64,000 nt of DNA, taken from the IMG/VR virus record IMGVR_UViG_3300033074_002207. One strand, given 5' to 3'. Source of the DNA: a virus (lineage: Duplodnaviria; Heunggongvirae; Uroviricota; Caudoviricetes). This document shows positions 50,056 to 55,275 of this stretch, in pieces; positions within the stretch are counted from its first letter, which is position 1, and each line of letters starts with the position of its first letter. The notes beneath the pieces are model-generated. The model saw only the letters and a list, made by a program, of their open reading frames with translations, did not search any database and had not been told where the DNA came from. The position numbers and the translations under genes were made by a program.

Positions 50056-50361
50056 ATGGCTATCAACATCAACTATCAACGTAATAAAGAACTGAGAGAG
50101 TATATCGCTCAACATACGAACAATATGCCAAACAATCCAGCACCACATAATATGCCAAGCAAGTTCGGTATCTTATCCAATGGAAATCCCACTATTTCTC
50201 CTATGCCCACTCGAACACCGTCTGTCGCAGAGATTGTATACACAGACGATTCTGTCCAGTTTATACATAGGAAAACAAACAAAGCCGTCATCACCATCAC
50301 CGACGACGAAATCATCATCGGATGCCTAGACGGAGAACATATCAAACTTGATATCAAGTAG
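50056..50361 (+). CDS. Hypothetical protein, GEHIK family
   Basis: C-terminus ITITDDEIIIGCLDGEHIKLDIK. Confidence 0.7.
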   Translation: MAININYQRNKELREYIAQHTNNMPNNPAPHNMPSKFGILSNGNPTISPMPTRTPSVAEIVYTDDSVQFIHRKTNKAVITITDDEIIIGCLDGEHIKLDIK

Positions 50362-51251
50362 TATTACTGGGATATAAGTGTAAGTCTTGAAAAATGTAGA
50401 AAATTGTCTAAAAGCTCTCTCAATACCAGTCTGAAAGAATATCTGAAGAAAGTCAGAGTCAGTATGATGAAAATGATTTTCAGACTTCGTTGAACCTGGG
50501 CTTTAGGCGAAGTCGAGAAGTGGTAGGGAAAGTCGAGAGAGAAAAGATGATGCCCCACCACTGAGAAGCCTGTTGGAGAGTAGGCTAAGGAGAATCAAGG
50601 AATAGTTTACTCAAGTGGATGGGGCTTATTTGTGAGCAGAGATGGAGGAAATAACATCGGTGCTACCACTAGATAATAACGAAGAAAAGATTTGCCAAAC
50701 TTCAGAACTATCTATTATAGAGTTCTGCAATTTTGAATCTGCGTCCTGCTTTTGGGAGACTTTTTTGAAGATTATTTCGTCTGGCTGGAAGAGGGGTGGT
50801 GGAGAGGCGTCCCATCTTCATCCCATGATTTGCCCAGTCTTATCCCATGTCAATCCCTATTTTAGATTTTCGTGTCAACAGGGAATAATTTTGATGTTTA
50901 TTTATGTAGGGTGGAAAAGGATTCCTACATGATGTTAAAAGGCTTCTCGGCGCGGAAAAATGCCCCAAAAAGCGTGATGACAAGAATTTCGAAAGGGGCT
51001 GGGGTTCGGCTGGCGCGTTCGACCCGACCCTATTTCAAATTTTAGATATGAAAAATTTACATTTCGAGGCATAAAATCGAACCAATTTTGTTTGACCCTA
51101 TGGTGTTGCAATTAAATCGGCGCGGGGTATGAATTTAGGTTCGGAAATTTGCTTTTCTGAGAATTTTATGATATGGCGGGTAATTTTGAAAGGAAAAGTA
51201 GGGGATATGAGTAGTGCCCTGTAAATCTATTTATGTTGGGGAGTTACAACA
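50362..51251. other. Large non-coding region at a compositional switch; candidate replication origin
   Basis: No credible ORF; A/C-rich + strand upstream, G/T-rich downstream; phased repeats inside. Confidence 0.45.
50810..50860 (+). repeat. Five imperfect TCCCATG-like repeats at an exact 11-bp period
   Basis: TCCCATC 50810, TCCCATG 50821, GCCCAGT 50832, TCCCATG 50843, TCCCTAT 50854. Confidence 0.7.
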
Positions 51252-51455
51252 ATGACCAGTGAAGAAATTCAGCGAAAGTTAGATGAGTTAGAGGAAAAGC
51301 GTTTGCAGATGTCGGAGCGTGTTTTGGCTCATAAGGCTGCTGCTGCCAATGCTTTGGATGCGATACAAAGTTCTATTGTTTCTATGCAAAATACTGTAGA
51401 AGAATTAGAGGTGTCCAATGGAAAGAAATCTCGAAAGCATCTTGCAAGAAATTGA
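51252..51455 (+). CDS. Small coiled-coil protein
   Basis: GGGAG RBS. Confidence 0.7.
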   Translation: MTSEEIQRKLDELEEKRLQMSERVLAHKAAAANALDAIQSSIVSMQNTVEELEVSNGKKSRKHLARN

Positions 51456-51585
51456 AGTCTCCGCTCAGGAGTTAGAAGACCGCGATTATATCCGCGAGGC
51501 TTCCGACCTACGCAGTTTAGTTGATTCCCTAAAGACAGGCGTACCGTTGCGTTCTCACAAAATTGTCCAGACTGTTGACAAATAG
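51418..51585 (+). CDS. Small protein (55 aa, not in ORF track) with A..L(D/E)...EAxD module
   Basis: GAGGTG RBS; SAQELEDRDYIREASDLRSLV. Confidence 0.6.
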   Translation: MERNLESILQEIEVSAQELEDRDYIREASDLRSLVDSLKTGVPLRSHKIVQTVDK

Positions 51586-51603
51586 TCCATGTAGGGATAT
51601 AAT
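51575..51603 (+). promoter_or_regulatory. Consensus sigma-70 promoter
   Basis: TTGACA-17 nt-TATAAT. Confidence 0.9.
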
Positions 51604-51608
51604 GGTTT

Positions 51609-51764
51609 AGGCTGTAAGCATTGGTTGCGGCTTAAAGAGAAACAACGATGAGTAATTACTCTTCCTAAAACTAGCATCCGCTGGAGTACCGTACTCCAAT
51701 GCCCGTGCGAGATGTTGGAAAACTAATCATACGGGACGGCAGTATCAAAACGGACAAACAGCCT
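51609..51764 (+). ncRNA. Unassigned structured ncRNA (~156 nt)
   Basis: Own promoter and terminator; terminal stem AGGCTGT/ACAGCCT; internal hairpins; no credible ORF. Confidence 0.7.
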
Positions 51765-51771
51765 GATAATT

Positions 51772-51803
51772 GAAGAAGCCCGCCATAAGCGGGCTTTCTT
51801 CTT
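51772..51803. terminator. Intrinsic terminator (likely bidirectional)
   Basis: GAAGAAGCCCGC-CATAA-GCGGGCTTTCTTCTTT. Confidence 0.85.
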
Positions 51804-51828
51804 TATTCCCAGTGTTTTCTTCTTACTC

Positions 51829-52581
51829 TTACCAGTTCCATTGGTCTGGATTATATTCGCCTATTGCGTTTTCGCTTGGCATATATTCGTTTGACATTTC
51901 GTTTGTATCTTTGCTACCGCCTGGTTTATAGATAAAGACTGTTCGAGATGGGTCTGCATAGACCACTTCAGGTATTTGGTATTCCCTTACCCAGTGTTGT
52001 CCAAGCATAGGGATTTCACTTCTATTCATAGATTCAAGTCCATAATCTCCTGGTGAGCCATGAATTGTGAATGATTTATCCAATTCAAACATTGGAATCA
52101 TTTGGTCTTTTCGGATTTCTGGTTCCACATGTGCTTGTGAGATAACTCTCCACCATGTTTCAGCGCTTTGTGCCATTTTAATAATCGCGCTGATTTCATC
52201 TGCAAATTTGTATGCATGTTTTTCGTCAAGAATATCGGCGGCGCGGATAATTTTGTTCAGTGTTGATGCTTGTCTCCATTCTTGAACGCTATATTCTGCG
52301 TGTCCTTCTTCGTCTGCTCCGTCGATGACTTCCCATCCTTCCATATCTGCGCCGCAATCGACACATACGCCATAGCATTCTCTAGCGGTTTCATTTTCGC
52401 CATCATTACCGAGGTATTCGACGTTATTATGTGGACATTGTGTTGTTTGTCCAATTGAGTCCATTGCATCGGTGATATCGAACGATTGTGCGATTTTAGT
52501 AATTCGAGTTGCATCGCTATAAAGTTTTGCCTCATCGAGTTTATTGGCTACTGAAAGAAGTTGGGCTACGATTTTTTTCAT
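51829..52581 (-). CDS. Hypothetical protein with two A..LD...AD modules and a CxxC pair
   Basis: VANKLDEAKLYSDATRITKIAQ; AADILDEKHAYKFADEISAIIKMAQ; CPH...CVDCG. Confidence 0.75.
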   Translation of the reverse strand: MKKIVAQLLSVANKLDEAKLYSDATRITKIAQSFDITDAMDSIGQTTQCPHNNVEYLGNDGENETARECYGVCVDCGADMEGWEVIDGADEEGHAEYSVQEWRQASTLNKIIRAADILDEKHAYKFADEISAIIKMAQSAETWWRVISQAHVEPEIRKDQMIPMFELDKSFTIHGSPGDYGLESMNRSEIPMLGQHWVREYQIPEVVYADPSRTVFIYKPGGSKDTNEMSNEYMPSENAIGEYNPDQWNW

Positions 52582-54411: not shown

Positions 54412-55275
54412 GTGGTTATCATGTCTAGACGAATTTTTACAAGCGCTTCTGGCGAAGCTTACAGTTATGAAATATTTGACCGCGACCTCTCTCAATATGA
54501 ACTGAAACACCTGGGTGAAATTGCTGTTTGGTGGGAATACAAGAGGTTGAAGAGATTCCCTGGTGTGAATCAGGCGCTGCAAGAATTGTTTGTGCGTCAT
54601 GATGGTATGTTGAGACAAATAGCTCAGCAATCTCATGCCATCCACTCCGGCTTAAGTGAGTTTGACGATAAGTTGCAGCACGCTCGATGCGGCGCAATCA
54701 TTGCATATGAGCGCTTTGATTTGGACAAAGCCCAGGATGCTGGCGGTCGATTATCCACATTTGTCCGCACCACGGTGTTTCGACATCTCCAGTCGGCCAA
54801 CGATGAGGATGCATTTATTGTTTGTCCCCCGACTCGACGGTCGCTGCGCAATTATCTAAACGGTCGATATGACTCGGACCCAGTAAAAAAGCGTTCGGTC
54901 GAGGAGAAGCTCGGCATCTCAAGTTCAGATGACATCCATAATTTGCGCAGAGATTTTGGGTTGTTGAATTCAAAGTTCTATTCCTACGACCACCCAATGG
55001 TCAATCCCCACCACCACGAGGTGGATTTCGATGAAATCATCTCTGGAAAGAACGTCACTGAGAATAATATTATCGACAAGGTTCAACTGGAGAGCAGCAT
55101 CTCTACGATGACACCTCGTCAACAAGAGGTGTTCACCAGGTATAACAGCGATGAATCTGTGGAATCCATCGCACAGTCGATGGGATTATCACAAAGCGCA
55201 ATTCGAAATGACATCAAAGCTGCGCGAGCAACTCTAGAAAACAGTTTTTCTGCCGATAATATTTCACATGTATAA
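54412..55275 (+). CDS. Divergent sigma-70 family factor
   Basis: Region 2-like AIIAYERFD...RLSTFV; region 4 MTPRQQEVF...SVESIAQSMGLSQSAIR. Confidence 0.75.
   Translation: MVIMSRRIFTSASGEAYSYEIFDRDLSQYELKHLGEIAVWWEYKRLKRFPGVNQALQELFVRHDGMLRQIAQQSHAIHSGLSEFDDKLQHARCGAIIAYERFDLDKAQDAGGRLSTFVRTTVFRHLQSANDEDAFIVCPPTRRSLRNYLNGRYDSDPVKKRSVEEKLGISSSDDIHNLRRDFGLLNSKFYSYDHPMVNPHHHEVDFDEIISGKNVTENNIIDKVQLESSISTMTPRQQEVFTRYNSDESVESIAQSMGLSQSAIRNDIKAARATLENSFSADNISHV

Follow-up and report, generated by a model that had tools for sequence, protein, structure and literature searches.

The 64,000-nucleotide (nt) stretch of phage DNA analyzed here (Caudoviricetes; IMG/VR record IMGVR_UViG_3300033074_002207; hereafter, the window) very probably carries, on its (+) strand at positions 51575–51803, a gene for a structured noncoding RNA (ncRNA) with a conserved fold. 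The unit was found in approximately nine phage lineages from metagenomes, amounting to 13 distinct full-length sequences. Judging from its flanking signals, the RNA would measure ~156 nt from one strand of its closing helix (P1) to the other and ~190 nt with the terminator hairpin. In our view, it constitutes a new RNA family within the known kind of orphan structured phage ncRNA.

Transcription unit and its conservation among phages

The unit opens with a sigma-70-type promoter (51575–51603, (+) strand) made up of a −35 box TTGACA (51575–51580), a 17-nt spacer, and a −10 box TATAAT (51598–51603). The original prediction, made from the sequence of the window, had called this promoter perfect, and it indeed matches the consensus at 12 out of 12 positions; it is also the sole exact match to TTGACA-17-TATAAT in the window (shuffled sequences predict 0.03). 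Its −35 box overlaps the stop codon of an upstream open reading frame (ORF) of 55 amino acids (aa). The 5′ strand of P1 (AGGCUGU, from 51609) begins five bases past the −10 box, and the predicted transcript start falls on the first bases of this strand (51609–51615). At the other end, an A/U-rich linker leads into the intrinsic terminator (51765–51803), which had likewise been predicted and consists of a stem at 51775–51797 followed by a U-run. The nearest gene on the opposite strand, a 250-aa ORF, ends at 51829, past the terminator, and may share the terminator as its own end; the RNA overlaps no gene. It is single-copy at each locus and has no paralogue within the window.

A 256-nt stretch recurs, nearly unchanged, in wastewater, sludge, river, and marine samples (20 public runs belonging to 14 studies). 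The 250-aa neighbor has only three close clusters among 5.8 billion proteins, and the contigs of those clusters, taken together with those of the upstream 55-aa protein, yielded 17 loci with 90 to 100% identity. Among these 17 loci, the RNA body (51604–51783) varies only at T51724G and in the length of the A-run at 51756–51758, and five changes fall in the promoter spacer, leaving both hexamers intact. The 5-nt terminator loop exists in three variants among near-identical phages, with the stem intact and no such variants in the RNA body. When the window was compared with a 16%-diverged relative (L008), 75 out of 465 positions differed upstream versus 2 out of 166 in the RNA body (Fisher p = 9e-9). 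The RNA body is thus under strong purifying selection while the surrounding genes drift.

Distant homologues of the 250-aa protein (37 to 55% identity) were retrieved by an exhaustive HMMER search. In these distant lineages, the order along the RNA strand is two co-directional small ORFs (68-/62-aa class), a gap, a convergent zinc-ribbon gene, a PNKP-like gene, NrdG, and sigma-factor genes. The gap measures 240 to 270 nt (~380 nt in L022), and every such gap holds an RNA homologue. The invariant block GGACGGCAGUANCAAAACG from the first alignment was used as the pattern for one metagenome scan, in which 5 out of 39 stretches proved to be the RNA (L035, L037, L044, L062, and L041, with L041 and L062 partial). 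The remaining stretches were chance or coding matches, one of which reads by eye like the end of a protein gene, possibly ATP synthase delta. L035, which was retrieved by RNA sequence alone, has the same neighboring genes. Thus, the homologue search proposed as a check in the original prediction returned a fold conserved, with covariation, in approximately nine phage lineages.

The signals that delimit the unit recur in these relatives. In 10 promoter variants, the −35 box is TTGACA or TTGACG, the spacing is exactly 17 nt, and the −10 box is TATAAT, with spacers of unrelated sequence; in nine of them, 4–6 nt separate the −10 box from P1. L066 carries ~20 extra nt between the −10 box and P1 (2646–2666 on the (−) strand), giving a 26-nt leader with a possible additional hairpin (UGUCG...CGGCA), which implies that the 5′ end of the RNA need not be flush with P1. 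All variants close with a GC-rich hairpin and a U-run, and the terminator stem covaries at four pairs.

Other searches returned no further members. Specifically, blastn and megablast against GenBank phages gave no match, and single-protein scans of IMG/VR with three neighbors found only one distant NrdG locus (L001), which is without the RNA. Three exact or degenerate RNA patterns in IMG/VR retrieved nothing or chance matches in coding sequence. A gapped pattern (TGGTTGCG-N45-75-CAATG-N25-50-CGGCAG), run on IMG/VR and genome contigs, produced only chance matches among the matches listed; nhmmer recognized 0 true homologues among the 237 loci that it delivered, the pattern being too loose to show absence from cellular genomes.

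Secondary structure and the conserved 3′ strand

The region 51609–51803 has a folding energy of −64.6 kcal/mol (z = −4.0 versus shuffles). We built a covariance model on an 11-sequence alignment and realigned the 13 full-length sequences with it. In the resulting nested model, 93.2% of cells are paired (86.4% in shuffles) and 14 pairs are altered on both sides, compared with 6.2 ± 1.6 in shuffles, a value reached by 0 out of 500 shuffles. Over all evaluations of the structure, paired cells amount to 93 to 94% (86 to 88% in shuffles) and doubly changed pairs to 14–15 (6–7 ± 1.7 in shuffles). Control registers slid by 1–3 columns contain 0–4 doubly changed pairs. The frequent G-U pairs of the model would read as A-C mismatches on the opposite strand, and these strand-specific wobbles indicate that the (+) strand is the RNA. 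The transcript would fold as a closed multi-helix body consisting of P1, P2 with an almost invariant 9- to 10-nt loop, an optional P3, P4, and P5/P5b with a GNRA-type tip.

P1 joins AGGCUGU (51609–51615) to ACAGCCU (51758–51764) and has two pairs altered on both sides, namely an outer A-U/U-A switch and a change from G-C to A-U in L023; this covariation bears out the earlier description of a stand-alone ~156-nt unit with paired ends. The P2 hairpin (51616–51633) is formed by AAGC (51616–51619) and GCUU (51630–51633) around the loop AUUGGUUGCG (51620–51629). Its stem reads GAAC(U)/(G)GUUC, GGAAC/GUUCC, or UGAAC/GUUCA in other lineages. The loop, (C/A)UUGGUUGCG, is retained in 11 of the 13 sequences, departing only in L067 and L068, and its core UGGUUG is invariant. 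P3 (51647–51664; GA-GAGU ... ACUC-UC) corresponds to the GAGUAAUUACUC hairpin noticed originally, which is kept through compensatory changes. It is variable: in most lineages, a hairpin of other sequence stands at this position (GAGC/GCUC, UUGAGC/GUUCAA, or AUGAGC/GCUUAU), and since it is absent altogether in L067 and L022, P3 is dispensable.

P4 (51682–51698) pairs UGGAG (51682–51686) with CUCCA (51694–51698) around the loop UACCGUA (51687–51693). In its general form (UGGRG/CYCCA), 100% of cells are paired across the 13 sequences, and pairs 3 and 4 are doubly changed in independent events (G-C/A-U in L069 and A-U/G-C between clades). This helix had been proposed as UGGAGUAC-C-GUACUCCA; its outer five base pairs (bp) show compensatory changes, while the proposed inner UAC/GUA pairs are confined to the clade of the window and L068, the same bases being loop in L066 and the other lineages. 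An invariant AUG linker (51699–51701), not a conserved start codon, separates P4 from the P5 domain (51702–51735).

P5 consists of six pairs between CCCGUG (51702–51707) and UACGGG (51730–51735), with a conserved A-purine mismatch in most lineages and double changes in L068 (C-G to U-A) and L066. It encloses P5b (GUU, 51714–51716; AAC, 51721–51723), capped by a GGAA (GNRA) tetraloop (51717–51720) that reads GGAA, GGCA, or GGCGA depending on the lineage. The CCCGU/ACGGG stem with an inner hairpin that was first read from the window is therefore present, with compensatory changes. The natural T51724G variant occurs in contigs L004, L005, and L008, and both alleles were found inside one sludge run; with G, P5b gains a U-G pair and reaches 4 bp, as in other lineages.

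Some other pairings did not survive comparison. The suggested GCGG/CCGC long-range pair is unsupported, as L068 has GAAG without compensation and the last G is used by P2. Relatives contradict both helices of the single-sequence minimum-free-energy fold (GCAUUGG/CCAAUGC and UGCGG/CCGUA), and constrained folds of individual sequences are mutually inconsistent. We also rejected an anti-terminator, in which GCGGCUU could pair with the 5′ arm of the terminator in the window; this pairing is not conserved in other lineages.

The most conserved block, GGGACGGCAGUAUCAAAACGG (51733–51753), lies on the 3′ side and is the source of the 19-nt pattern that retrieved more homologues. Its ACGG (51750–51753) is complementary to CCGU in the P4 loop (51689–51692), and this YCGU:ACGR complementarity holds in 13 out of 13 sequences, with C-G in six and U-A in seven. 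It amounts to one compensatory double change whose distribution matches the clade split of many other columns, and the trees of flanking genes cannot tell whether the state of L068 is an independent event. We consider this pseudoknot pairing probable, not proven. In addition, GCAG (51739–51742) is complementary to UUGC in the P2 loop (51625–51628), as is CAA to UUG. Both sides are nearly invariant and hence do not covary, and L067, L068, and L069 each break one pair without compensation; a tie of the P2 loop to the 3′ strand is possible. In this way, the invariant strand GGCAGUAWCAAAACGR would organize a pseudoknotted core by holding the P4 loop (YCGU:ACGR) and possibly also the P2 loop (UUGC:GCAG). 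For either complementarity, sequence alone cannot separate intramolecular from intermolecular pairing. Overall, at least ~40 unpaired bases are invariant across lineages whose NrdG is at best 78% identical to that of the window.

Coding potential, known RNA classes, and neighboring genes

The absence of a credible ORF, as originally stated, agrees with the comparison: none is conserved in length or phase across lineages. The ORF that starts at AUG 51699 has 24 codons in the window and 3–35 codons across lineages, and 1- to 2-nt indels in the P5 internal loop shift the invariant CGGCAG block among frames 0, 1, and 2. For this ORF, the two natural variants of the closest relatives amount to a Leu-to-Arg change and a frameshift. 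A mini-ORF encoding MSNYSS (ATG at 51648) lies inside the dispensable P3.

The RNA had also been described as matching no known class by eye, and the proposed Rfam check is in line with this. The Rfam 15 covariance models gave 0 matches at gathering thresholds over the whole window; at E ≤10, only sub-threshold, terminator-driven hits appeared (STnc430, 20.9 versus 47 bits; GadY, 18.1 versus 45 bits). Across the loci of five relatives, the best hit was AbsR25 (32.9 versus 47 bits), at one locus only. ARAGORN found no tRNA or tmRNA. A riboswitch or attenuator does not fit, with the next gene convergent in all lineages and no conserved leader ORF, nor does a cis-antisense RNA of the OOP/sar type, with no opposite-strand gene over the transcript. 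Similarly, the P4 loop UAYCGU(U) is without the U54/A58 pattern of a tRNA-like or Y-RNA-like element, and direct reading of the P2 loop against tRNA D-loops found only UUGGUU in common. Likenesses noted by eye to 5S rRNA, the 16S 341F region, and the 16S 1100 region span 7–13 nt each, have no Rfam model behind them, and were set aside. A literature search found no paper describing this RNA.

Lambda OOP, P22 sar, and T4 RNA C and D are stand-alone phage small RNAs, each with a promoter and terminator of its own. Like these, the window RNA is a short ncRNA that lies among early or regulatory genes and is delimited by a host-type promoter and an intrinsic terminator. However, OOP and sar are cis-antisense to a neighboring gene, whereas the window RNA overlaps none; it is also larger, multi-helical, and probably pseudoknotted, keeps its fold across divergent lineages, and has no sequence or model similarity to them. 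The phi29 packaging RNA, pRNA (RF00044), is comparable in size (120–174 nt), end-closing helix, multi-helix junction, covarying 4-nt loop complementarity, and early host-type promoter. In contrast to pRNA, the window RNA has no Rfam match and belongs to a huge phage with sigma factors and NrdG, not to a phi29-like podovirus; its complementarity joins a loop to a single strand and may be intramolecular, and no link to packaging genes was seen. GOLLD, ROOL, raiA, and OLE, orphan "ornate" RNAs known from bacteria and phages, resemble it in being phage-associated, highly conserved, and elaborate, with many invariant unpaired bases, a context uninformative on function, and, in some cases, a stand-alone gene. 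They are 200–800 nt long and represented in Rfam, whereas the window RNA is ~160 nt long, matches none of them, and is found in one clade of uncultured huge phages. Finally, 6S RNA, a decoy for RNA polymerase, is likewise a stand-alone RNA of 150–200 nt with paired ends, for which protein sequestering is a plausible parallel, but it forms a long irregular rod with a central open-promoter-like bubble, while the window RNA is branched and probably pseudoknotted and has no Rfam 6S match.

Neighboring genes in the window encode a PNKP-like HAD phosphatase, an NrdG-type radical-SAM activase, and a sigma factor, and the RNA promoter lies 2.8 kb upstream of the sigma-factor gene. Two sigma-factor genes and an HD_4 (RelA/SpoT-type hydrolase) gene (54412–55275 in the window; 3272–3889 in L002) occur in conserved order no more than ~8 kb downstream of the RNA, a stretch that looks like a regulatory or take-over module. 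From the terminator to the next (+)-strand gene, every lineage has convergent genes, spanning from 0.4 kb (L003, L066, and L067) to 1.3 kb (L023–L026).

The convergent ORFan (51829–52581 on the (−) strand of the window; also in L003, L011, L016, and L023) is modular. It combines an N-terminal helix motif (ANxLDE...FAD) present in two copies, a zinc-ribbon-like core (CxH...C...CxxC), and swappable C-terminal domains also encoded by stand-alone 160-aa genes (P0011 and P0014); near-identical phages carry versions of 137 to 379 aa. For the AF2 model of the 250-aa protein (pLDDT 71), Foldseek found no match in PDB below E = 0.05, and an Atlas search gave no usable match. Neither this protein nor the neighboring ORFs scanned along with it had a PADLOC or NCBIfam match or a PHROGs family, and their Pfam matches were weak, far below gathering scores.

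Upstream of the two small ORFs, positions 50361–51252 form an ~890-nt gap without a convincing gene, and a gap of similar size is found in the same place in L010 (1944–2835) and L023 (6912–7866). Between close loci with a 100% identical RNA body, identity across this gap is only 96%, and in distant lineages the gap cannot be aligned, save for an 86-nt piece in L067. The RNA had been placed next to a candidate origin; cumulative GC skew does have a local minimum at ~50 kb, but no functional link to replication was found.

Possible modes of action

Given the many invariant unpaired bases, and since searches of the window and related loci turned up no complementary site, we favor, tentatively and at somewhat less than even chances, a trans-acting pseudoknotted RNA that would serve as a shaped ligand (scaffold or decoy) for a phage or host protein rather than as an antisense RNA. 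The original prediction listed a decoy, an antitoxin-like RNA, and a replication regulator as possible roles; the anatomy would best suit a decoy or a scaffold. Host sigma-70-type RNA polymerase would initiate at the first bases of P1, probably early in infection, and stop at the intrinsic terminator. The transcript would then be released as a stable RNA, with paired ends and a terminator hairpin, and would act through its protein partner. Obvious candidates for this partner are the conserved neighbors, namely the zinc-ribbon protein encoded downstream and the two small upstream ORFs, which look coiled-coil-like. The consensus host-type promoter is what suggests strong or early expression.

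Several observations weigh against this interpretation. The adjacent proteins are ORFans without a Pfam, PHROG, PADLOC, or NCBIfam family or a PDB fold match. L068 changes the P2 loop (GCG to GAA) without a compensating change. The covariation represents few independent events, with many of the double changes following one two-clade split; the same split yields many spurious covarying column pairs, which makes an all-against-all covariation listing unusable alone, and the trees of flanking genes (NrdG and PNKP) that were built for counting independent events are unresolved. Expression data add a further point. We placed four RNA-labelled runs (X17–X20) on positions 51200–52100, where their contigs show no ends, strand, or level. 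X19 and X20 (RNA-seq from one study; depth 2–7; related strain) contain contigs that bridge the promoter (51483–51633) and the terminator (51737–51947), as expected of DNA or read-through transcripts, and they are no proof of a discrete transcript. X17 and X18 (sludge "metatranscriptomic WGS" from another study) have short contigs over 51621–51782 only, with both T and G alleles at 51724; in X17, these have a depth of 6–15 and uncovered flanks, and X18 has an additional upstream contig of equal depth. Both runs may be DNA. Uncovered stretches in the libraries carry no meaning. Taken together, the public RNA libraries provide at most a weak hint of expression, which is also compatible with DNA carry-over or read-through.

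The best surviving alternative, which we nevertheless consider unlikely, is a base-pairing regulatory RNA whose P2 loop, (C/A)UUGGUUGCG, would kiss a host or phage RNA, with the remainder acting as a stabilizing scaffold. As in many bacterial small RNAs, the unit has its own promoter and terminator and an A/U-rich stretch before the latter, and the loop that is retained in 11 out of 13 sequences contains YUNR-type U-turn words (CUUG and UUGG); YUNR loops reportedly speed antisense pairing (Franch et al. 1999). However, sites complementary to this loop were not found beyond chance in the 64-kb window or in ~60 kb of related loci: the window has 23 one-mismatch matches versus 16.7 expected, and its sole exact match is the locus itself. 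Moreover, no gene lies on the opposite strand of the RNA, L068 mutates the loop, and the invariant unpaired bases far exceed what a seed requires. A separate observation concerns L035, in which an 11-nt exact complement of the P2 loop (CCGCAACCAAG; ~6292 on the (+) strand) is located 5.4 kb from the RNA gene; this site is antisense to local genes, has no counterpart in the window, and is probably due to chance.

An RNA that acts through chemistry or assembly of its own is a more doubtful proposition. Under this scenario, it would be a small ribozyme, a ligand-binding RNA, or an oligomer held together by intermolecular loop-strand pairing, similar to phi29 pRNA rings and GOLLD/ROOL cages. Its dense invariant unpaired bases, GNRA-type tip, and pseudoknot-type complementarity would suit such an RNA, and covariation is blind to whether the pairing is intra- or intermolecular. 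On the other hand, no Rfam ribozyme, riboswitch, or pRNA model matched, there is no co-directional downstream gene to regulate, no cleavage-site signature was recognized, and ~160 nt is far below the size of known cage RNAs. We give a slightly smaller chance still to the specific form in which YCGU:ACGR and UUGC:GCAG pair between molecules to build a homo-oligomeric ring or cage, or in which host polymerase, as infection starts, makes an RNA that is a small ribozyme or ligand-binding fold of a new kind.

It is improbable that the locus acts in cis, either as a put/EAR-like element that promotes read-through toward the PNKP-NrdG-sigma operon or as an origin-proximal primer or activating transcript. 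Its promoter is the only host-consensus promoter of the window and precedes the sigma-factor gene by 2.8 kb, one RNA-seq contig crosses the terminator, and the GC-skew minimum is nearby. Yet the 0.4 to 1.3 kb of convergent genes before the next (+)-strand gene in every lineage and the strictly retained terminator and U-run argue against this view, the closed covarying P1 fold points to a released folded RNA rather than an R-loop, and two ORFs intervene between the RNA and a gene-free gap that is not conserved in distant lineages. Lastly, a short coding gene (the 24-codon ORF at ATG 51699 or MSNYSS at ATG 51648) or a palindromic DNA-protein site is highly improbable: although AUG 51699 is invariant and follows GGAG by 12 nt, and GAGTAATTACTC and TGGAGTACCGTACTCCA are perfect DNA palindromes, the first ORF keeps neither length nor frame, the second sits within P3, which is absent or different in other lineages, the palindromes are lost as such elsewhere with only compensating stem pairs retained, and the G-U wobbles are strand-specific.

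The protein-ligand reading remains the one that we favor. Huge phages are known mainly via metagenomes, and their ncRNAs are almost unexplored; the RNA described here, which has no Rfam family, GenBank phage match, or IMG/VR match, could be deposited in Rfam as a family. It is compact (i.e., simple to synthesize, probe, and solve) and combines a clear transcription unit and unusually strong conservation with a testable pseudoknot. Should the RNA prove to self-assemble or to catalyze a reaction, it would represent a new small RNA fold; should it titrate or scaffold a host or phage protein as infection begins, phage biology would gain an RNA-based take-over tool.
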